A stretch of 64,000 nucleotides of DNA. Origin: Octopus vulgaris (lineage: Eukaryota). Of this stretch, positions 4,651 to 60,719 are shown piece by piece. Within the stretch, counting starts at the first letter, position 1; every line of letters starts with the position of its first letter. The notes under the pieces are model-generated. The model worked only from the letters and a program-made list of their open reading frames with translations. It was not told the origin of the DNA and did not search any database. The stretch is taken from positions 62,062,001 to 62,126,000 of the forward strand of contig OX597825.1 in the NCBI GenBank assembly GCA_951406725.2, in the 5' to 3' direction. The translations under genes and the position numbers were made by a program.

Positions 4651-4986
4651 GTATAGGAGTGGCTGTATGGTATGTAGTTTGCTTACCGACCACATGGTTC
4701 TGGGTTCAGTCCCACTGCATGGCACCTTCGGCAAATGTCTTCTACTATAGCCTCAGGCTGACCAAAGCCTTGTGAGCTGATTTGGTAGAAGGAAACTGAA
4801 AGAAGCCCATTGTATATATATATATAAGAAATTAAAAAAGGAAAATATGCACACTTACATAGTTTTAATATAATATTAAAAATTATATTAAAACCATGTA
4901 AGTGTGCTTTTTTTCTTTTTTAATTTCTTATATACATTACAACTCACAATATGGGGAAAATCAAAATTCCACTTTTCTGTTACTAC

Positions 4987-13820: not shown

Positions 13821-14096
13821 TTAGGTTTTCTCCCTTACGCTAGACAGTTCCTCATTTCTATTGAAATGAATGTTAACAAGGTTAGTACAATTTTTTCAGA
13901 ATCATGCATTTCAGAATTAGCTGACCAAGGCACTTTCATATGGCATTATGTTGTACAGGAAATTGAGACTTTACATTAATAATGCTATTAAATTCTCAAG
14001 GTTTTGGCTTAAGAATTTAAACGCATTATTAGGTCATGATTTTCTATTAATTTTATGATATCGTTTGACATATTCACATATAACATGAAGTAATTG
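13821..14096 (+). repeat. 276-bp segment duplicated in inverted orientation at 19449-19724
   Basis: Reverse-complement match with about 6 substitutions counted by eye. Confidence 0.95.
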
Positions 14097-19448: not shown

Positions 19449-19724
19449 CAATTACTTCATGTTATATGTGAATATGTCAAACGATATCATAAAATTAATA
19501 GAAAATCATGACCTAATAATGCGTTTAAATTCTTAAGCCAAAACCTTGAGAATTTAACAGCATTATTAATGTAAAGTCTCAATTTCCTGTACAACATAAT
19601 GCCATATGAAAGTGCCTTGGTCAGCTAATTCTGAAATGCATGATTCTGAAAAAATTCTACTAACCTTGTTTACATTCATTTGAAAAGAAATGAGGAACTG
19701 TCTAGTGTAAGGGAGAAAACCTAA
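19449..19724 (-). repeat. Inverted copy of 13821-14096
   Basis: About 98% identical reverse complement by eye. Confidence 0.95.
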
Positions 19725-21274: not shown

Positions 21275-21496
21275 ATAATCAAAATAAGCACCAATTATAT
21301 CCGAGGTAGAGTAGTAAAATTGTTTCATGCTACTTCATTTTATTAAACACTGTAAGGATTACATCAGTTTTAAAATGTTGAGCAATCTTCAGCCATTTTA
21401 AAACTGATGTAATACTTACAGTGTTTAATAAAATGAAGTGGCATGAAACAATTGTACTACTCTACCTCGGATATACTTGTTGCTTATTTTGATTAT
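21275..21496. repeat. About 220-bp foldback element
   Basis: Arms of about 105 bp that are near-perfect reverse complements; arms contain GAAACAATT(G/T)TA. Confidence 0.9.
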
Positions 21497-22178: not shown

Positions 22179-22304
22179 ATATATACATATAATAAATTTA
22201 GGGTGAATACTTGATAAGTGTAAGCACCTGTATACGTCAGCTAGTAGCAGAGGTGAGAGGGTGTATGTATCAAATGAAATCAAAAACAGAACACAGAGGA
22301 TATC

Positions 22305-22395
22305 GCGGTACACGTGTTTCAACCTTTATAAACGACCTATTCTTACATCATTGTATAATCGGCATAAAGGATGGTTTAAAGCTCTCTTCAGCCGC
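22305..22395 (-). ncRNA. Type I hammerhead ribozyme motif, extended stem II
   Basis: GCGG-CTGAAGA-GAGCTTTA...TAAAGGTT-GAAA-CACGTG-TA-CCGC; perfect stem I, canonical core, palindromic ACACGTGT stem III. Confidence 0.75.
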
Positions 22396-22465
22396 ATGCA
22401 ATTTTTATACCAAGGATTTCGGATTTTTCATAATGTGATGTAAATCTTTGGTATAACAATTGCAT

Positions 22466-22556
22466 GCAGCTGAAGAGAGCTTGAAACCCTCCTTTATGCC
22501 GATTATACAATGATATAAGAATAGGTCGTTTATAAAGCTTGAAACACATGTACCGC
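22466..22556 (+). ncRNA. Type I hammerhead ribozyme motif, extended stem II
   Basis: GCAG-CTGAAGA-GAGCTT...AAGCTT-GAAA-CACATG-TA-CCGC. Confidence 0.7.
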
Positions 22557-24458
22557 GATATCCTTTGTGTTCTGTTTTTGATTTCATTTGATATATATAT
22601 ATATATATATATATATATGGATACAAACATCTGTGTGTACATGTGTGTATGTTTGCATATGTATGTATACATGTACATGTGTGTGGGGTGCTTTTACTCT
22701 TGGGATTGTGCTGGTTGTAAAGTCATTGTCATACAATTCTGTATCATTCTCTAAAACTCTTCTATATAATTCTTGCCATCTAGTCACTGAAGAACAAGCA
22801 AAAACATTTAACTTACTTAGAGCAAGGTGAGTGCTAGCAACAGGAAAGGCATCCAGCCATAAAAATCTAGCACAACAAATTTTGCGTGACCTATGTATGC
22901 ATGCAAATGTGACATTATGATGATGATGGAGATGGTGTTGAGGTGAATTCAATATTATCAGGTGTGAAGCTTGTTCCCTTGTTTAATAGGTACTCAACAA
23001 GATTTACTTGAATGTGTAAAATATCACAAATAATATCTAACACTTGTACTCATCTCAGAAGTAAGTTAGAACTGCATGAAATCAGTTCTAGCTTCCTAGC
23101 ATTATTGTCAAGATACTTTACAACAGCAGGTTATATTAACAATGTGATATTATAATAGTAGATATTCAAATATTGTCCAAGTTATTGAAAATCATAATTT
23201 TGAAGAGTCAGTATCCAAATATTCCAAATATTCCTCGCTGCAGAGGTTGTTAGCTTAAGGAGTCACTCATCCATTGCTTCTAGTAAACACTGAGCTATTC
23301 TACTGCAGGTCACTATTCTACTGCATGGACACAGAATCTTTGTGAGCTCACACAATCTAGTGTTAGAATTTAATATAGGAATATGAGACAATTATAGAAT
23401 ATTCCATACTTCACAAACAATGCTACATCCTACTATTATCTTGCTATTGTTAAAACTCTCTCATGAGACAGAAGATACAGGTTTGGCTGTATGGTGTGGC
23501 TGTATGCTTCCCAACCACATGGTTCCAAGTTCAGTCCCACTGTGTGACACCTTGTTCAAGTGTTTTCTACGATAGCCTTGGGTCAATCAAAACCTTGCGA
23601 TTGGATTTGGTTGATGGAAACTGAAAGAAGCTTGTCTTACATTTTTTCTTTTAATTGTTTCAGTCATTTGACTGTCGCCATGCTGGAGCACCACCTTTCA
23701 TCGAGCAAATCGACCCCAGGACTTGTTCTTTGTAAGCCTAGTACTTATTCTATTGGTCTCTCTTGCTGAACCACTAAGTGACAGGGACGTAAACACACCA
23801 GCATCGGTTGTTAAGTGATATTGGGGGGACAAACATACACACACACACACGTATATATATACACGATGGGCTTCTTTCAGTTTCCATCTACCAAATCCAC
23901 TCACAAGACTTTGGTCAGCCCGAGGCTATAGTAGAAGACACTTGCCCAAGATGCCACACAGTGGGACTGAACCCGGAACCATGTTGTTTGTAAGCAAGCT
24001 ATTTACCACACAACAACTCTTGCACCTATATATATATATATTTATGTGTGTGTGTGTGTGTATTTCTGTCTGTGTTTGTCCCCCACTAACACTTGACAAC
24101 TGATGTTGGTGTATTTGCATCCCCTGTGACCTAGCAGTTTGGCAAAAGAGATCAATAGAATAAGTACTAGGCTTAGAAAATTAATACTGGGTTCGAGTAA
24201 TTTGACTAAAAATGCCACAATCTAATGATTGAAACAAGTAAGAAATAAAAGGTAATGGTTAATATGTATTATAACATATACTTACAGTAGGGCTCACAAA
24301 TTGGGGGTAAACAGAAGAGAGTGTGTGTGTGGTGACCCTAGGAGGATGATAAATGGTAAGTAAGAGGAGGGATTGGAAGAGTATGGCAGAGAATAGGGTA
24401 GAGGATAAGGATAAGTGAAATGAGAGAGACTTGAAAAGGGGATGTATTCTTGGATATA

Positions 24459-28150: not shown

Positions 28151-28505
28151 TTAGGTTATCTGGTAAGTTCTGAGCGTTTTTAAACTAAATCTTTTAACGC
28201 TTCAATGAATACACCTGAAATGTAACAGAGTTAAAAAATTTTGGCATTGCTTGAAGTGGTAGTGCATGTATTCTTTGTTCCTGACTAAAAATAGATTAAT
28301 CTTTCATTCCAGTCACCCATTATTGACATTTGAAATGGAAAATTTCATATTCGCGTTGTAATGCTTTTCTTTTTTTGACAAAAGGAGAAAATGCTGCAAA
28401 GACTTGCAAAAACAGTTGTGAAGTTCATGGTGATAATGCTGTAGGTGAGTCAACAGTTCAAAGGTGGTTTTCAAAATTTAAAGTTGTAGTGCTTAGCTTG
28501 GAAGA
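28151..28505 (+). mobile_element. Mariner transposon 5' fragment
   Basis: TIR-like TTAGGTTATC start; KGENAAKTCKNSCEVHGDNAVGESTVQRWFSKFK...SLED is the mariner HTH N-terminus. Confidence 0.85.
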
Positions 28506-28526
28506 TAATAGTCACAGTGTTGCCTT

Positions 28527-28568
28527 CACTATGTTTCAGCTGTTGTATGCTCCAGCCTTCTTCAGGTG
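28527..28568 (-). ncRNA. Minimal type I hammerhead motif
   Basis: CAC-CTGAAGA-A-GGCTG-gagcatacaa-CAGCT-GAAA-CA-TA-GTG; stems I and II pair and the core is canonical. Confidence 0.65.
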
Positions 28569-28659
28569 TCTTTTGTCAAAATTTATCCTGTTTACACCAG
28601 GTGTTCATGAACTGTACTTTTAGGAACTTCCAACTTCTCTGCAAGTTGGAAGTTTCTAA

Positions 28660-29394: not shown

Positions 29395-29821
29395 TTTTAT
29401 TCTTTTACTTGTTTCAGTCATTTGACTGTGGCCATACTGAAGCCCCACTTTAAAGGGTATTTTTTAGACAAAGCACTCAACCTCAGGAAGTAAACCTTGT
29501 AAGCCTAGTACTTATTCTATCAGTGTCTTTTGTTTAACCACTAAGTTATGGGGATGTAAACACACCAACATTGGTTGGTGGACAAACCCAGACACAAAGA
29601 CACACACATATAAATATATACACACACACACACATACAAGATGGGCTTCTTTCAATCTCCATCTACCAAATCCACTCACAAAGTTTTTGGTTGTTCTGAG
29701 GCTATAGTAGAAGACACCCAAGGTACCACACAGTAGGATTGAACCCAGAACTATGTGGTTGGAAAGCAAGTGTCTTACCACACACCCGCACCTATATATA
29801 CACACATATATACATATAATA

Positions 29822-29890
29822 ATAACACTAAACCTAGGATGAAATTTATGTATTAAATATTTATAAACTTCATCCTAGAATTATTGTTAT
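29822..29890. repeat. Short foldback palindrome
   Basis: CTAGGATGAA.TTTAT / ATAAA.TTCATCCTAG. Confidence 0.75.
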
Positions 29891-29996
29891 CATATATATC
29901 CTACATTATATTAGTATAACCCTGATGCAACCCTGAAAAACTGACTTACAAGTCAGTATCATTAAACTGTAGCCCGCATAATGAAATAAGGGTTTT

Positions 29997-30096
29997 ATTT
30001 GTATACCCCTAACATTACCATAAACGAATTTAAAAGGTAAATATATATATATATATATATATCTTTTAAATTCGTTTATGGTAACATTAGGGGTAT

Positions 30097-30102
<6 letters not shown>
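29997..30102. repeat. Inverted repeat centred on (TA)n
   Basis: ATTTGTATACCCCTAA..TTACCATAAACGAATTTAAAAG and its reverse complement. Confidence 0.9.
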
Positions 30103-30134
<32 letters not shown>

Positions 30135-38861: not shown

Positions 38862-39928
38862 GCGTGTGTGTGTGTGTGTGTAAGCATCACTGTAAATTTA
38901 TCTGTGTGTCTGTGTTTGTATTTACATGTGTATGTGTCTATATGTGTGTTTGTGTGTTTATGAGTATTCATATGTGCCTTTATATTTCCATATATGTGTG
39001 TGGCTGTGTGTGTCTTTGTGTTTGATCTTAGACAACTTGACAACATGTGTTGGTTTGTTTACATCCTGTAACTAAGCAATTTGGCAGACGGAGACCAAAT
39101 GAATAAGTACCAGACTTCAAACAAACCAGAGTTCAACTAAATTCCTCAAGTCGATGCCCCAAAACATCTTCTGTTCAATGACTGAGACAGATAAAAAAAA
39201 TAATACAGTAAAGAATACACACACAACATGATCAAACAGTTAAGAAGTTTGCTTTGCCATCAGTAGGTTTCAGGTTCAATTCCATAGCTTGACATCTTGA
39301 GCAAGTTTTTTTTTACTATATATAGTCACGGGTAAAGCAAAGACTTGTGGGTGAAATTGGGTTTATGGAAGCGATATGAAACCTCTTGGATGTATTATGC
39401 TTGATTTTAAGATGCTTAAATTTGTCACATACTGTGTTACATTAAGTCTGCTGGTAGATCATATTAGGGTGCATGTATCTGTGGAATACACAAACACTTG
39501 CATTACAGTTTTAACAAGAGAAAACAGCATCGAACACACCTGTTGAGGAGGGCCAGAATTGATTTTTCTAAGTATGTGATATTCATCATCATCATCATTG
39601 TTGTTTAACATCAGCTCTTCATGCTGGCATAGATTGGATGCCAGAAGGCTGCACCAGGTTCCACAAAGATATAAGCAAAAGCTGAATGCTCATACGTTGT
39701 CTTTGATGGGAGATCAAAGGTGTCAGGTAATGCTGGGAGATCAAAAGTGTCAGGTAATGCTGAGTAAGTGCTATGGATAGACCATAGTTAAGCTCCAGGT
39801 TCGGTGATTATGCAAATAAGGAGTCCAACATAGGTCATATATCAGCATGTGTATATAGAAAAATATTTTTTCACAATGACATTAAAAAAACCAAGTCTGT
39901 GAAGATTTTAGAACATTTCAAATAGAAG

Positions 39929-39976
39929 GTCTTACAGCTGTTTCTGGGATATTTTTTATAACCCTTCATCAGAGAC
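39929..39976 (-). ncRNA. Minimal type I hammerhead motif
   Basis: GTCT-CTGATGA-A-GGGTTAT-aaaaa-ATATCCC-A-GAAA-CAGCTG-TA-AGAC. Confidence 0.78.
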
Positions 39977-40001
39977 TATTGCTTAACCATTTTCCTGCAC
40001 C

Positions 40002-40049
40002 GTCTCTGATGAAGGGATATAAGAAATATCTTGGAAACAGCTGTAAGAC
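40002..40049 (+). ncRNA. Minimal type I hammerhead motif
   Basis: GTCT-CTGATGA-A-GGGATAT-aagaa-ATATCTT-G-GAAA-CAGCTG-TA-AGAC; palindromic ACAGCTGT stem III. Confidence 0.78.
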
Positions 40050-40130
40050 CTTCTTTTTATAAATGTTCTAAAATCTTCACAGCCTTGATGTTTTATCTCA
40101 TTCTGAAAAAAGAATTTCTTTTATATATAA

Positions 40131-40168
<38 letters not shown>

Positions 40169-40579
40169 CGTTATACAAATACATCTGTTTGTTTTCTTCA
40201 CCACCTGTCTTCACCTTTTGTTTTTTTCATGAATTCTCCCAATATTTAAAAGAAAGGATAATGGAGATAAAGAAGTTAATAATTGTTTCTTATTATCAAA
40301 CTGGTCATCTCTGCTTCTTACATCCATTTCAATTAACACTCAATAATTTAATTACAAATTTGTACATTAAATTTACATTTATGTGACATAAGTATATATA
40401 GAAAATAAAGATGTACATTTGGATGTTATATGTGGACCCATCAATTCATTTCAGCAGACTATTGTTTTAAGGGAATTTCAGTCCCCCAAAATACTAGGTA
40501 TTGAACCAGTATTTCTTTGGATGCAAACATCCCTTCATGAAGTTAACATATCTTATAATTAAATTATCTATATATACTC

Positions 40580-40618
<39 letters not shown>

Positions 40619-40789
40619 TGTAAATATAATATGTGACAACAGTAATTTCCCTTTGTTTAACGGTAATTTTCATAGCATTTTTTCGATGGTCGGATAACTG
40701 AAGAGATAGTGGCATAGGTTTCCGCCCCGTCATCTGAAACGCAGAATTTTATCATGGCTACCGAAGAATTGTCACATATTATATTTACA
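40619..40789. mobile_element. Element with 21-bp terminal inverted repeats containing an HHR-like motif
   Basis: TGTAAATATAATATGTGACAA / TTGTCACATATTATATTTACA; internal GATAA-CTGAAGA-GAT...ATCT-GAAA-CGCAGAA-TT-TTATC at 40693-40753. Confidence 0.65.
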
Positions 40790-46925: not shown

Positions 46926-48045
46926 AGAGAGAGAGATAGCAAGAGAGAGAGAGAGATGTAAATGTATGTTTGTGTATTTCTATATATGCATATGTATACA
47001 GTTTTTCTGTTACTATTAATTAATTGATGTTCACCAAAGAGACTCAAAGGACCAGAGTCTTGTGCACTGCCATATGAAAATGTACTTATACGTATACCTA
47101 TGGTCGATTTTCCCTGGAAGTTGCTAAGTTGACATGTGTGTTATATGTGTTTGTGTGTGCATGCATGTGTGTGTTAGTGTATGCATGCAAGCTCATGTGT
47201 ACATACAAATCTGTGTGACTGTTTATATTTCACTTATATTTCACTCATTACTACTTGAGGGAATCATTCATTACATTTGTTCTAACATTGCAACACGTTG
47301 CTATGCAATTTTGGAAAACTTGTGAAATAAAGAAAACCCCCATCTTGAAAATGTGGTAATATTTGCTGACAGTAAAGTATCTCTCCAAATTCATACACTC
47401 TGGTAGGGACACTAAACATTAACTGACATATATATGTGTGTGATATACAAAGAAGGAAACAGGAGACTAGAATTACTTCATATGGATGGCATAATGACAG
47501 TGCAAATGTTTGGTGAAGCATGAGTATTAAATATGTACATATATGATGATAACTGTTACCTGGGAAATATTTCTTATTACATGATAGCAAACGGATAATG
47601 AAATTTATAAATTATCTTTAACACTTTAGCATTCAAAGTATTCTGTCAAATGTAATGCTTATTTATTCAAATTGTTTTGAATTAATCATGCAGTAATTCA
47701 TAGCTTTGCGATTTAGATGATGGGATTGCTTAGAGATGTTGGATTTGACCAGCCTGAGCATAAAAGTTTTGTATAGAAGTGCAGGCATAGCTAGCTGTGT
47801 TGGTAAGAAGCTTGCTTCCCAACCACATGGTTTCGGATTCAGTCCCACTGTGATGAACCTTGGGCAAATGTCTTCTACTAAAGCCCCAGACCAACCAAAG
47901 CTTTGTGAGTGGATTTGGTAGACGGAAACTGAAAGAAGCCTGTCATATATATATATAGTAAGAATTTACAAAAAAACGAAAGACAAAGACAAGTGTGTAA
48001 ACAACAAACAGATGTATTAGTTTAATGCTTGGGAAGTGAGAATGT

Positions 48046-48081
48046 CTTTTACATTTTGAGCCTATGCTCTTCAGCAGAAAG
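48046..48081 (-). ncRNA. Decayed minimal hammerhead motif (same family as 59241-59276)
   Basis: CTTT-CTGCTGA-A-GAGC-atag-GCTC-AAAA-TG-TA-AAAG. Confidence 0.45.
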
Positions 48082-48091
48082 GAACACAGAA

Positions 48092-48515
48092 ATATATATA
48101 AATCACAGTATGTGTGTGTAAAATGAGTGGCGCATACATTTCCACAGTTGTTAACTGATTTTCAACAAACTTTACACACATTACTTATGTCCCACAGATG
48201 GTCATGCTCTATAACATTTTACCCAGAGCTCCTGCATAAATGGACATAGTTTTTTTTTGTGTGTAGGGTCTTCCATACATTTCATAAAAGGGAAAGGAAT
48301 TTTGTCTATTTATTTATTTTGACTGCCTATCTGCAACGGTAACACAACACGTATTATGTTTCTGGTAATTTTCTTTCCTGTAAATAAATGTTTATGTTAA
48401 TTTAAAAGATTAATCCAAAGAAATCTTATTTAGCTGTTATTTTTAGCACAACACGTAGGTGAACGTAAAGAATATGCACACCTGGTGATTAGGTTAGGGT
48501 TAGGGTTAGGGTTAT

Positions 48516-54054: not shown

Positions 54055-54350
54055 GCATGTTCTGTTGTATCTGGGGTCATGTTTTTTGTGCCTTATAATG
54101 TAACACACTCACTGGTAAAATTTCCACTTATTTCTTATTTTTATTTTCCTAAAATTTTCGTTGCGTCTTGCAACCTTTTCAATAGTCTTGACTCTCAAGA
54201 CTATTGTTAAGACTATTGAAAAGGTTGCAAGACCAACGAAAATTTTAGGAAAATATAAAAATAAAAAAGAAGTGGAAATTTTATCGGTGAGTGTGTTATA
54301 TTATAAGGAACAAAAAGAAAATGACTCTCCCCAGACACAACAGAATATGC
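54055..54350. mobile_element. Foldback element with two divergent variant hammerhead motifs
   Basis: Inverted arms of about 135 bp; HHR-like motifs at 54149-54185 (-) and 54213-54248 (+). Confidence 0.88.
54149..54185 (-). ncRNA. Hammerhead variant with U3-A8 core
   Basis: CTA-TTGAAAA-G-GTTGC-aagac-GCAAC-GAAA-AT-TT-TAG; palindromic AATT stem III. Confidence 0.55.
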
Positions 54351-54399: not shown

Positions 54400-55680
54400 A
54401 AAATCTTGCATGTGTTCTTCTTTTTTCTTGGTTCCAGGATTGATTGACACTGCTGTCCTTATCTGTACCTCATACTGGAATGTTGGCGCCTCAGGTATTA
54501 TGGATAGGAGAATGACAAATTCCATTTTTTGAAGACTTGCACATCCACATTGTATGGGTTCCTTAATTCTTTTAACAAAGAGTTGAAGAGCTATGGGCCT
54601 TTAAACCCTAAACTCTTGCAGCACCTGATCTTTACTTTAGATAGAGTGGACGGTTATTTTGGTGTTTTGCAATGACGTCCATCTAGGCTTTTGTATAATT
54701 CTTGATGCCAAATGAAATATTTATCTATCCCTAATTAAACATGCATGTTCTATTAGAACGTACATGTTTAATTAGGGATAAATATTACTTCTCAGTATTC
54801 AATACAGCTTCAGTCACTTACTCTTTTACTCTTTTACTTGTTTTAGTCATTTGACTGAGGCCATGCTGGTGCACCACCTTTAGTCGAGCAAATCAACCCT
54901 ACGACTTATTCTCTGTAAGCCTAGTACTTATTCTATCGGTCTCTTCTGCCGAGCTGCTAAGTTACGGGGATGTAAACACACCAGCATTGGTTGTCAAGCA
55001 ATGTTGGGGGGGGGGGAGGCAAACACAGACACACAAACATACATATATATACATATATACAGCGAGCTTCTTTCAGTTTCCTTCTACCAAATCCACTCAC
55101 AAGTCTTTGGTCGGCCCGAGGCTATAGTAGAAGACACTTGCCCATGGTTCCACACAGTGGGAATGAACCTGGAACCACGTGGTTGGTAAGGAAGCTGCTT
55201 ACCACACAGCCACTCCTGTGCCTAATATATAATTTTTAACAAGCCAACTTGATGCCAAAGTTTGGTGCTAGCCCTTCCAGAAATTTTCACACCAGTGATT
55301 AAAGACATTTTTCAGCCTCACCTAATAGTTCCTTTGCTGCATTTTGGCAATCTTTTTAGAGTAGTATATTATTGGATCAATTCCAGCTCTACTGTTTGTA
55401 GCTATGCAGGTACCATAAGTTCTCTGTCTTGCTTACTAGAATGCACTTCACTGATGAGCTCAAATATGAGCAAACCATATTCTATTATTTCCACCATCTA
55501 GCTGTGTAAGCAAGTTCCATTCTTATATGGGATTTCTTAATTTTCCAAAAATTTTCAGTGGTTGACAATGTTAAAGTCATATCCTTATATTGCTTTATGA
55601 TTAAGACTGTCCTAGTAGAAATTTGTGATAACTTGTTCCATGTGTAACCCCCATCTGATACATTTCCATAGCAGTATGTA
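54400..55680 (-). mobile_element. Decayed CR1/L2-like LINE 3' region, interrupted by a hairpin and a SINE
   Basis: ELELIQ..KKIAKMQQRNY*VRLK (cf. ELExIQR..KKI..YWERLK) and SLGFKGP*LFNSLLKELRN...VFKK. Confidence 0.7.
54726..54780. repeat. 55-bp near-perfect hairpin
   Basis: TATCCCTAATTAAACATGCATGTTCTA-T-TAGAACGTACATGTTTAATTAGGGATA. Confidence 0.9.
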
Positions 55681-55763: not shown

Positions 55764-58104
55764 TATATTCTAACAATTAAGGATATGAAGACTGGAAAAG
55801 CCCCCAGTCCGTCAGGAATCACTGCTGAGGTACATAAGTGCACCCATTACACTCTCAGAGTGGTTGGTGTTAGAAAACCATGCCAAATCGGACTGGAGTC
55901 TGGTGCAGCCTTCCAGCATGCCAGCCCCAGTCAAACTATCCAACCCATGCCAACATGGACAATGGACGTAAATGATGATGATGATGATGACCTTCTCCAG
56001 AAGGCAAAAGAAGAATATTTCATATGATTTCTGAGTCTGAAACTAAACGAGAAATAGTCAACAACAATTTTACTGAAAACAACTTCCACTATATATAATA
56101 ACATGTGGTTGAAAACACTAAGAACTGAAAGCACTTGCATATCTATAAAAGCAAAGCCTACACACATTTTATGAAATCTCTTCCCAAAGGTTAGTGCCTT
56201 TTGACTTCCTAAAAAGGTTCTTTTCTCAATCTTAACTCTTTTAGAAAAATCTTCTCTCCAAATATTATAACTGTATCATGGAATTTCCAAAACACTAAAT
56301 ATATATATATGTGTGTGTGTATATATATATAAATTGTTTGTTAAATACTTTACATTCATATTTTTTAATGTTAACCTAGTTAAATGAATTATATAAATGA
56401 ATACTGTTGAGACCTTGTATTAACTGTGTAATGCCCTTTCTCTCACCAACCTTTACCTATTTTACAAGTAAGGACGATTTATCTCACTTCTCTTGAAAAT
56501 ACAAAGCAACTGGATGATTTGAAGAAAGAGAAATGTCAATACACAGTACTGTCCATAGTTTAGTACAGATTGTAACCAGTCACACTCACAGACATACAAA
56601 GACACACACACTTCCATACATGCACACATTTTAACCAATTGGGCATTGATTACTCAGGACTATAGCAGAAGACACTTGCTGAAGAAGCTGTACAGGGGAA
56701 CTGAGTATGAAAGCCTTTAATTGCAAGAATGGACTTCTTGACCATGCTATTATGCTTGATGTCCTTTTATATAAATCATTATTCTGCAATGATATTCTGT
56801 AATGATCTAATGAATAATCCACAAATGAGAATCAAAATAGAAAACTAGTAAAAGACCAGAAAATAAGAAAGAAAGAAAGAAATAGGGTATATATATAGAA
56901 GTGCGAGAAAATAGCAGAGAGTTCTTGTGAAGAGAAAGCAGATTTGTGCTTAATGGTTCAGTCTCTATCTTTCTTTTTCTCCATCTCTCTTTCTCACACA
57001 CAAACACACATCACATCATATTTTTCAAAACAAATCCTAAACTGGAACAGTTTTAAAATATAATCACAGCTTCTATTTTTGTTTGTTTCATATCTAGGTG
57101 TCATTTGTAATTGTGTTAGGTTTGATAAATAATCAATATTTATCTATATTTTTACACGTCCTGCTAAAAGAGAAACTTAAGCTATTCCACTTATACCAAC
57201 AAATTTGCTACTGAACAGCTTAAACTATGGAAGCATGTCAATATATTTACAGAACTGCTAAAATCTACGCTTATATCAAATAAGTTTGCAGTACTATTTA
57301 AACTGTGCTCTTGTCAATAAGCTATAGTTGTAGAAGTTCATTGCTGCTGGCTTGGATATTTATAATGATAATGATGAAGTAGCTTTTAAATATTAAGCTT
57401 CTGTAAATTTTATTCCAACATGTCAGAATAGAATGATGGGATTCAAATACTTTAACAGTACCATCATTGTACAGTTAGTTCTTTCTCTCACTCGCTCACC
57501 CTCTCTTTATTGCGCTCTGTCTTTATTTCTCTTTTCTTTTTCCTATCTCTCAACACACACAGACAAACGAAGGAAAGTTACAGTGGATGAGAAAAAATTG
57601 GAGTTAAATTAAAAATATGTTGCAAGCAGTAATCACTCAAGTCAGAGATAAATCAATTTAGAGAAAATAACTACACTAAGCCATATATTAAGACTGATAT
57701 AATTTCTTTATTTATAGTTGTATAGATTGCATGAAGCATTGTTTGATGAAGAAGAGAATTATTAACTTATTTTAAGCCACAGCGGTGCAAGTTATAAGAA
57801 ATAATACAAGTTGATTGTTGTACTTTTATATTCTATTTCAATACTTTGGGGTTAATTCAGAACATCATTTCTGCAAAGTTTTTTTGAAGAGGTCATAATT
57901 CCAACATATTGGAATACGAAATAAAAGTACAAACTTCTTGCATTATTTTTTATAAAGCCCATTCTTTTGGCTTTAAAAAAATAAAAATGTTTTACTTTTT
58001 TATATTTTAATCAAGAAAGAAGGTAATATTCAGGACCCTTTTCAGTTCTTTCAAAATTGCTGGGAAGGAAGGAGAAAGATATCCACAAAACTATTGGGAA
58101 TTAG

Positions 58105-58485: not shown

Positions 58486-59240
58486 CACAAAACTATAAAC
58501 TTGAAGTGAATACCTAGAAAAGTTTACTTTGCTTAAGGTGTCAAAAGTACCAGGTGGTGGTATTAAATCAGGTGTCTACACATACAAATGATGGAAAGTA
58601 ACAAAGGAAAGACGAATTGATATAAAAATAGTGTCATCTTAAATGACACCTACAAAAGAAAACAATTTGGGATGATTGCAAATTTGCACTGAGGGAACAG
58701 GTTTGACCTGGTTAAATGTAAAATATTGTTAAATTTGTAAAATGTCTAAGAAGTGGTCATACCCATGAATGTTCTTTAAAAAATAATAAATATTTTTCTA
58801 ATTTTAGTTGAAAGCCAGTAATTCTGAGCAAATGGAAAGTCAGTTACATCCAGTGCTCAGCTGTGACTTATTTTTATCAAGCTGTAAAAGATGAAAGGCT
58901 GCATTGACTTTGGCAGTATTTGAACTCAGAATGTAAAGGCAAGAAGAAATGACATTAGGCATTCTGTCCAATTCTCTAACAATTCTGCCAGCCCACTTAG
59001 AAATAACTAGAAATAATGAAGCAAGTTCCTGCATGGCATTTATCATTTCAGAAGGGATTGATGTTATAAGGCTTTAGTCATACATTTACTTCTTGTGATC
59101 TTTCTGTATCTCTGTTTGTACACACATATACAAATGAAACAAACTAACAATGGAAAGTCTTCCTTCAGATACATTTATATCAAGATAGATCAGTAGCCAC
59201 TACACACATTTTTTTTCTCTCCTTGTTTTTTTCTGTGTCC

Positions 59241-59276
59241 CTTTCTGTAGAAGAGCGTAGGCTCGAAACGTAAAAG
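59241..59276 (+). ncRNA. Minimal hammerhead-like motif (A6U variant) in a PLE-like fragment (59190-59370)
   Basis: CTTT-CTGTAGA-A-GAGC-gtag-GCTC-GAAA-CG-TA-AAAG; palindromic ACGT stem III. Confidence 0.6.
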
Positions 59277-60719
59277 ACTTTTTCTATTCCTGAGCGTTAT
59301 ACTAATACATCTGTTTGTTTTCTACACCACCTGTCTTTGTCTTTTGTTTTTTTCGCGAACTCTCTCCCTATATATAGAGACATCTATATGAAGTACATCT
59401 ATATTAAAAAGAGTTAAAGACTTTTAATATCAAACAATCCAAACCACACTGGATTTATGACAAAAACCTTCTGTTTTAAAATAATGTAAATTAAAATCCC
59501 ACCTAAAATTTCCATATTAATTTATATTCAAAAACCAGCTAATAAATGACAAAATTATTTCATTAAATGAATCATTATTTCCAAAATTAATTATGATAAC
59601 GGCAATGTATTTTAACAGAAATTCAATAATCTTTTATGGGAGAATCCTGAAGAATACCACGTGCTTGAAAGTGGAATAACCATTTTACCATAAATAAGAA
59701 CTGAGTGAACTGCCAGTGGGGAGTTGATGGGTGTTAGTTCGACATATGTTGGTTCAACTGTTGATAGTTGAACAACGAATACTGAGTATCGTACCTACAT
59801 TTGAGTAGTATGGAGTGCATTCTGCATTAGAATAAATTTCTGCAATAGGTTATTTTTAGATAACCACAACCAACTCTTTATGTGTAATACCATTTTACAC
59901 CAGACATGTATACCCTCATCATAAAATAACCAAATGTTTGACTGATATATAAATAACATCGTCATTATAAATAACACTTGTACCAGAAATGATTCATTCC
60001 AAAAAAGTAAAAAAAAAAAAATTGTGAAGAAACAAACGAAATGTTTTGAACTGGTTAAATTTAAAATCTTGTTAAATTTGTTAGATCTTGAATATAGCTG
60101 AACAGGTTGATTTCAAAAATATTGACTAAAGTAATTAAAAGTAATGAAAAAAGTTTACATGACAGAATAATATCAACTCAATGTGAAATCAAGTCTGATT
60201 GAAAGCAGAAAATATCATTGTTGAATAAGCATATTTTTCACTAGAGTAGTTTTTTGACATTTTGTGTCCACTCAGTTAAGTAATTAGAATAGTAAGATTT
60301 GAAAGTGTCTACTTGGAACTGATACAACATTCATTAATAAAGTAGCTGAATTGGAGTGTTTCTAGTCATAATTTGATTCAGCATTAGTTAGCATTTTGCT
60401 GTTCTATTCAATGTTCAGCTTCTTGATTAATAAAATACATGTATAAAAGTTTTGAAACACCATTGAAACCTCATTAAAATACCATTGACAATGTCGAGAT
60501 TAGATCTTGGCAAGAAATAACTTCATCATTGTCAGTAATAATACATCAGGTTAAATTAAATAATCAACAACAAAACTTAAAATATGCATACATGCACACA
60601 CACACACACAATACACTGGATTAATAATCCAATGAAAACAGCAACCCAGTGTGAATGCAAACATTCCTGATATTGTTCTGTATAGATACATACATACATA
60701 CATACATACATAGAAACAT

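Follow-up and report, generated by a model that had tools for sequence, protein, structure and literature searches.

Two 48-nt sequences with the features of minimal type I hammerhead ribozymes lie on opposite strands of the window, by which we mean the whole 64-kb stretch of DNA analyzed. The plus-strand motif is found at 40002-40049 and the minus-strand motif at 39929-39976. They point outward, i.e. they are divergent, with a gap of 25 bp (39977-40001) between them. In each arm there is a stem I of 4 bp (GUCU/AGAC), the sequence CUGAUGA, one unpaired A, GAAA, and a self-complementary ACAGCUGU in helix III. GUA precedes the predicted cleavage sites at 40045/40046 (plus) and 39933/39932 (minus), and U4 of the plus arm is position 40007. 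Stem II comprises 7 bp in the plus arm, with two G-U pairs at its base, and 6 bp with a U-U mismatch in the minus arm. An extra purine is located between stem II and GAAA, i.e. G in the plus arm (40033) and A in the minus arm, and the closing pair is G-U or G-C; the purine may just as well be taken for a doubling of G12. A preliminary description had proposed a divergent hammerhead pair with a 25-bp gap, and each of the elements it listed (4-bp stem I, CUGAUGA, GAAA, stem II of 6-7 bp, self-complementary stem III) is borne out on both arms by inspection of the sequence and by descriptor scans.

The arms differ at 5 of the 48 nucleotides. All five lie in stem II, loop II or the extra purine, as expected from the earlier claim that the differences fall outside the core. 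The probability that none of five differences should fall in the 13 core positions by chance is 0.19, and it is 0.012 for the core together with stems I and III, with boundaries that were picked post hoc. The bare core pattern occurs in the window at background level (2 found, 1.91 expected). A fuller hammerhead descriptor, composed after the motif had been seen, matched three of 40 random sequences of 64 kb, and none of the 40 once a palindromic helix III was required. The two arms are one duplicated sequence, and were counted as a single observation. At the gathering score there was no match to a hammerhead model of Rfam in the whole 64-kb window, and on relaxing to E values of up to 10 the region 39800-40150 gave 13 matches, none of them to a ribozyme. 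The best of these were microRNA hairpin models, which we rejected as generic hairpin matches below threshold. The null result at the 39929-40049 pair shows that Rfam misses this class of minimal motif.

Minimal hammerheads of this kind were described in the pseudo-LTRs (pLTRs) of metazoan Penelope-like elements (PLEs) by Cervera and De la Pena in 2014 (PMC4209133). In the accessible parts of that paper, to which our comparison is confined as it is for the other sources cited, helix I has 4-5 bp, with a range of 3-5 bp admitted, and helix II up to 7-8 bp, the base between positions 9 and 10.1 is unpaired and conserved, helix III is palindromic, and the motif is preceded by U-rich and followed by AU-rich sequence. 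Both arms have the PLE core of CUGANGA, GAAA and UH. Their helix I of 4 bp, helix II of 7 and 6 bp and unpaired A are within the published limits, and ACAGCUGU provides the palindrome at positions 15.2-16.2 plus loop 3. The cleavage predicted earlier after GUA agrees with the published site in the PLE minimal hammerhead, as does the proposed dependence on a dimer. The likeness extends to the short helix I, long helix II and dimer-requiring palindromic helix III, to U-rich and AU-rich flanks, high copy number and occurrence as opposite-strand pairs, and the Drosophila willistoni row of the published alignment has an identical AGCU loop and a similar helix I (PMC4209133). The unpaired A had been thought atypical. 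That was incorrect, as members of the class consistently leave one base unpaired between 9 and 10.1, in 54 of the 56 rows of Fig. S3 by our reading (PMC4209133).

The extra purine is a departure. A G10.1-C11.1 pair directly before G12 is lacking on both arms, where the extra G or A intervenes. In the same alignment GAAA directly follows stem II in 55 of 56 rows, and AGAAA is present in one, apparently a PLE of Cotesia bracovirus from the order of the rows. The purine at the base of stem II had also been called atypical; this holds for the class, but not for its own family, where it is the usual letter. The family therefore departs from the class at one defining feature, the position of stem II directly before G12, and does so family-wide, with one published parallel in the accessible alignment. 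Unlike the published minimal hammerheads, the extra purine is the norm here and U4C is found in 53-77% of the depth; moreover the gap is 25 bp, compared with 100-700 bp in published opposite-strand pairs, and no ORF was seen (PMC4209133). We found no description of the repeat family in the open-access literature searched. The motifs searched for were absent from the accessible Naiad, Chlamys and Hydra consensus files as exact short strings, which line breaks can hide.

The motifs are part of a wider inverted repeat spanning 39852-40127, with about 125 bp in each arm (E = 5e-61). Each arm is a decayed copy, truncated at its 5' end, of a single high-copy repeat, and the two are placed head to head. 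The preliminary description gave neither the full extent of the inverted repeat nor its high copy number. On the plus arm, the alignment of contigs from related sequence begins at 39975, and the loose end before this point is common to 60, 38, 7 and 5 contigs in runs X1, X3, X15 and X16 respectively. The 'spacer' between the motifs therefore belongs to the plus copy: 39975-40001 (+) is its pyrimidine-rich upstream part, and the copy is 5'-truncated at 39975. The minus copy is cut off at the first base of stem I, with loose contig ends behind 39976. The two base pairs 39975-39976 match both copies, and from the sequence may be a microhomology at the head-to-head junction.

Downstream of its motif the plus copy continues as AT-rich sequence (40050-40127, +) that ends at a TA run, a (TA)n microsatellite at 40122-40167. 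The corresponding continuation of the minus copy (39852-39928, -) matches 40050-40127 and ends in a short TATATA. On the minus copy alone, a distal part of the repeat family is present at 39742-39857 (-). In related contigs the depth over this segment is of the same order as that over the hammerhead, a joint of 39857 to 40111 on opposite strands is found in 13 X1 and 5 X3 contigs, and continuous related pieces span 39762-39913 (X1) and 39747-39944 (X16). The minus copy is thus about 235 bp long. Related copies extend beyond 39742, about 30 bp past the end of the copy in the window, and three X16 contigs reach a TA run. There is a 27-bp tandem duplication at 39707-39762, across the junction between the distal end of the family and a neighboring repeat piece at 39675-39713. 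The arms diverge at 8 of 81 columns close to the junction, and at 12 of 47 (25%) farther out. No third copy of the hammerhead repeat, nor of the 39742-39857 part, was found in the 64-kb window by BLAST or nhmmer, and no target-site duplication was identified around the pair.

Parts of the stretch are present in 20 of the 24 public sequencing runs listed, none of which contains half of it or more and none of which is recorded as RNA. Contigs matching 39660-40125 were found in each of four runs, aligned at 80% likeness, and number 4647, 3249, 736 and 47; these counts include a small neighboring repeat, and neither they nor summed depth are equivalent to copy numbers. Most contigs are 90-95% or less than 90% alike, and with their number in the thousands this points to an old, high-copy interspersed family. 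Position 40033 is G in 93% (X1), 99% (X3), 96% (X15) and 49% (the thin X16) of the depth. At 40031 the related sequence has C in 87-99%, giving a G-C pair in place of the G-U of the plus arm, while 40032 is U or C, either of which pairs with G. The family variation at 40031 and 40032 thus keeps stem II paired as G-C or G-U, and loop II varies freely.

Position 40007, which is core position 4, is C in 53-77% of the related depth (U4C). Among the related contigs there are two kinds of upstream sequence and two forms of loop II. From the proportions in the four runs, U4 and C4 appear to mark two subfamilies. These seem likelier than CpG decay as the sole source of U4, given that no matching G>A row appears at 40008 among the 40 rows listed of 90. 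In the study of Perreault et al. (PMC3088659), as far as it is accessible, U4C greatly reduces activity in vitro but can sustain a viroid in vivo; certain insertions into the hammerhead core are tolerated. Two runs guessed to be RNA contain contigs of the family, which show neither strand, nor ends, nor the 39929-40049 locus. There was no sign of RNA editing, with A>G counts alike in DNA and RNA runs. The head-to-head junction was bridged by none of the 32 pieces listed, of 8835, in related runs, a sample that cannot show absence.

We have used secondary structure prediction to examine the potential folding of RNA transcribed from the locus. The active monomer fold is predicted to lie 3.5-5.6 kcal/mol above the minimum, and the ACAGCUGU self-duplex to form 8 intermolecular bp at -11.1 kcal/mol. 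For the minus arm the predicted two-strand minimum is the active dimer (-22.7 kcal/mol), and for the plus arm an inactive fold is predicted to prevail (-26.5 compared with -20.3 kcal/mol). The pair was earlier termed best-preserved, which is true only by comparison with the remaining motifs of the window; in the plus arm G-C pairing has been lost (40031), and its dimer is predicted to misfold. Read-through RNA contains one sense and one antisense copy, and so should form a long hairpin hiding the sense ribozyme. The predicted energies are -75.0 (+) and -65.7 (-) kcal/mol for the 121-nt RNA across the pair, and about -138 or -135 kcal/mol for a 276-nt transcript; forcing the active ribozyme fold in read-through RNA is predicted to cost 49-69 kcal/mol. 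On this modeling the two motifs cannot dimerize with each other in cis, and pairing in trans would be possible only for separate outward transcripts that start in the gap. The accessible literature describes minimal hammerheads as inactive monomers that cut weakly and as dimers only (PMC4209133). In an Anolis element the hammerhead cuts in vitro, but insertion in vitro does not depend on it, and its cut site coincided with no RNA-seq read ends (PMC11167929). The two motifs of the pair do not form one functional ribozyme unit and most likely arose as a by-product of an inverted insertion, and the modeled folds suggest a relic that is most likely silent.

Among all 294 window frames of at least 55 aa that passed a complexity filter there was no Pfam match to a reverse transcriptase (RT) or GIY-YIG domain, and outside simple repeats the window lacks any ORF as long as a gene. 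In the Anolis element an ORF begins within the motif (PMC11167929, accessible part); a similar start was rejected here, since the core ATG opens 17 codons in the plus arm and 32 in the minus arm. The sole Pfam match above cut-off in the window is a fragment of a mariner-type transposase HTH at 28327-28620 (+) (HTH_48, E = 4e-11). The window is AT-rich (GC 0.29-0.43) and full of microsatellites and interspersed repeats, and reads as non-coding animal DNA, with SINE-like repeats that may resemble those of octopus. No flanked copy of the repeat was found in the viral, metagenome or prokaryote collections searched: two viral-contig loci (L001 and L002) were rejected as having no similarity beyond the pattern, a second viral scan gave nothing, and both scans of metagenome contigs and both of prokaryote genomes gave no matches.

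Other hammerhead-like sequences and inverted repeats were noted in the window. Adjoining the (TA)n at the plus-copy end is a fragment of a second repeat family (40168-40250, +), with other copies at 59205-59385 (+) and 47940-48110 (-) that have another minimal-hammerhead-like motif just upstream. This motif, at 59241-59276 (+) and about 48045-48081 (-), has a 4-bp GC stem II, an ACGU helix III and altered core positions 6-7, and it is the part downstream of it that recurs at 40168-40250. A third hammerhead-like motif is found 650 bp downstream of the pair at 40693-40752 (+), with a 5-bp stem I, CUGAAGA, GAAA, a long imperfect stem II and a non-palindromic helix III; it may be a remnant of another family, or have arisen by chance. 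An outward inverted pair at 22264-22597 has 156-nt arms that are 94% complementary with a 22-nt gap, its right arm ending at (TA)n, and both arms have CUGAAGA followed by a near-palindromic 6-mer with no fit to the hammerhead descriptors. Near-perfect local inverted repeats with no hammerhead match lie at 54055-54350, 21275-21496, 29996-30103, 4818-4937, 54722-54784, 29814-29899 and 57792-57955. Two inverted copies of 276 nt at 13821-14096 and 19449-19724, 98% complementary and 5.3 kb apart, represent a recent repeat or inversion.

We interpret the two head-to-head truncated copies as the inverted pLTR structure left by insertion of a PLE, each carrying the minimal hammerhead of the element, and assign this reading a probability of about 0.8. 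The inverted repeat, the anatomy of the motifs, the high copy number, the assignment of the spacer to the plus copy, the greater length of the minus copy and the (TA)n terminus are established features of the locus, and motif class, arrangement, copy number and target make it likely that the repeat belongs to a PLE. Published accounts, in their accessible parts, agree well with this. Dual minimal hammerheads occur some 100-700 bp apart on opposite strands, a second opposite-strand copy is found at the 5' end of truncated PLEs, and solo and truncated copies form the majority of PLEs (PMC4209133). Craig et al. report that an inverted 5'-truncated copy beside a pLTR is common and that (TA)n is a preferred target (PMC8557442), and head-to-head is the most frequent inverted arrangement of PLEs (PMC3846280). 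Published pLTRs measure about 200 bp and contain TATATATA internally, and only one of the two arms bears an extension, a tail of 30-40 bp (PMC3846280). The locus likewise has 5'-truncated copies in a head-to-head inverted arrangement and belongs to an interspersed high-copy family at (TA)n, as in EN+ PLEs. It resembles their inverted pLTRs in the 5'-to-5' junction of truncated copies and unequal arms (PMC3846280; PMC8557442 Fig. 2), and in the internal TATATA and the TA microsatellite at the end (PMC3846280; PMC8557442). Here the minus arm exceeds the plus arm by about 115 bp or more, compared with the published PLE tail of 30-40 bp (PMC3846280), and unlike EN+ PLE insertions there is no ORF between or beside the repeats and no target-site duplication identified here (PMC3846280; PMC8557442). 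In one octopus genome PLEs make up 6.83% of the sequence in 190 families (PMC13282606, accessible part), so that a PLE relic would be expected in 64 kb if the host is an octopus. The probable course of events is that an autonomous PLE elsewhere in the genome would provide an RT/GIY-YIG protein that copies pLTR RNA into cDNA, and the inverted copy would be added by self-priming or a template jump using the 2-bp microhomology. In an active element two same-sense hammerheads would pair via the palindromic ACAGCUGU and cut weakly after GUA.

The arm differences of 8/81 and 12/47 are also compatible with two separate insertions, in which one pLTR family, perhaps as two subfamilies, inserted twice in adjacent positions and opposite orientation as a nested coincidence. 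The region is indeed a cluster of repeat ends at (TA)n, the related contigs have two upstream sequences and two loop-II variants, and the outer 47 columns of the arms are 25% different. Yet the 5' ends abut exactly with two bases in common and with no TA run or host DNA between them, the lack of another family copy in 64 kb makes chance adjacency unlikely, and head-to-head is the pattern published for PLEs (PMC3846280). We therefore regard separate insertions as improbable. It is a little less probable again that the repeat is not the pLTR of an autonomous PLE but a non-autonomous non-LTR retrozyme or SINE-like unit, spreading as small circular RNA. That would suit a window without an ORF, a repeat a few hundred bases in length that carries a type I motif, and the presence of family contigs in runs guessed to be RNA, and a 2026 preprint derives retrozymes from pLTRs (bioRxiv 10.64898/2026.07.22.740005, accessible part). 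The non-coding repeat, type I hammerhead and low GC are all shared with animal non-LTR retrozymes (PMC7229834; bioRxiv 10.64898/2026.07.22.740005). However, known retrozymes are arranged head-to-tail and mostly carry canonical type I motifs (PMC7229834), whereas the pair here is inverted, of minimal type, and without the two same-sense ribozymes needed for release of a circle. The 150-450-bp repeats of retrozymes, joined head-to-tail and each carrying a type I hammerhead, are absent at the locus, where no tandem of the unit exists and tandem periods are 2, 3 and 27 only; and the far end of the family appears to stop at a TA run (three contigs).

It is very improbable that the host has retained the pair, whether as a self-cleaving switch working in both directions or to supply double-stranded RNA. 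Neither the two cores nor stems I and III have been disrupted, at the post hoc p of 0.012 given above, and a 276-nt hairpin of about -138 kcal/mol is predicted. But both arms deviate from the common letters of the family, including the lost G-C pairs of stem II, long inverted repeats are common in the window, and the junction-spanning count of 0 of the 32 pieces listed (of 8835), which cannot show absence, gives no support in related runs. An inverted PLE insertion is our preferred origin for the pair.

Taken as such, the pair is unremarkable: decayed retroelement ends of this sort are many, and their arrangement was published between 2013 and 2021. We consider, tentatively and as rather unlikely, that the repeat is a very abundant PLE family with a fixed variant core, comprising a basal A-G 1x1 loop in stem II together with U4C in the commoner subfamily, and that this is either active or retains the fold without catalysis. 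The A-G 1x1 loop could extend the tandem G-A pairs. If so, this would be an undescribed active core, or else a case in which the fold and palindromic dimer site are kept while catalysis is lost; the latter would provide a test of whether PLE hammerheads are retained for RNA pairing or protein binding rather than for cutting. The thousands of related sequences with natural changes at the edge of the core offer a ready comparison for the role of the hammerheads in PLEs.
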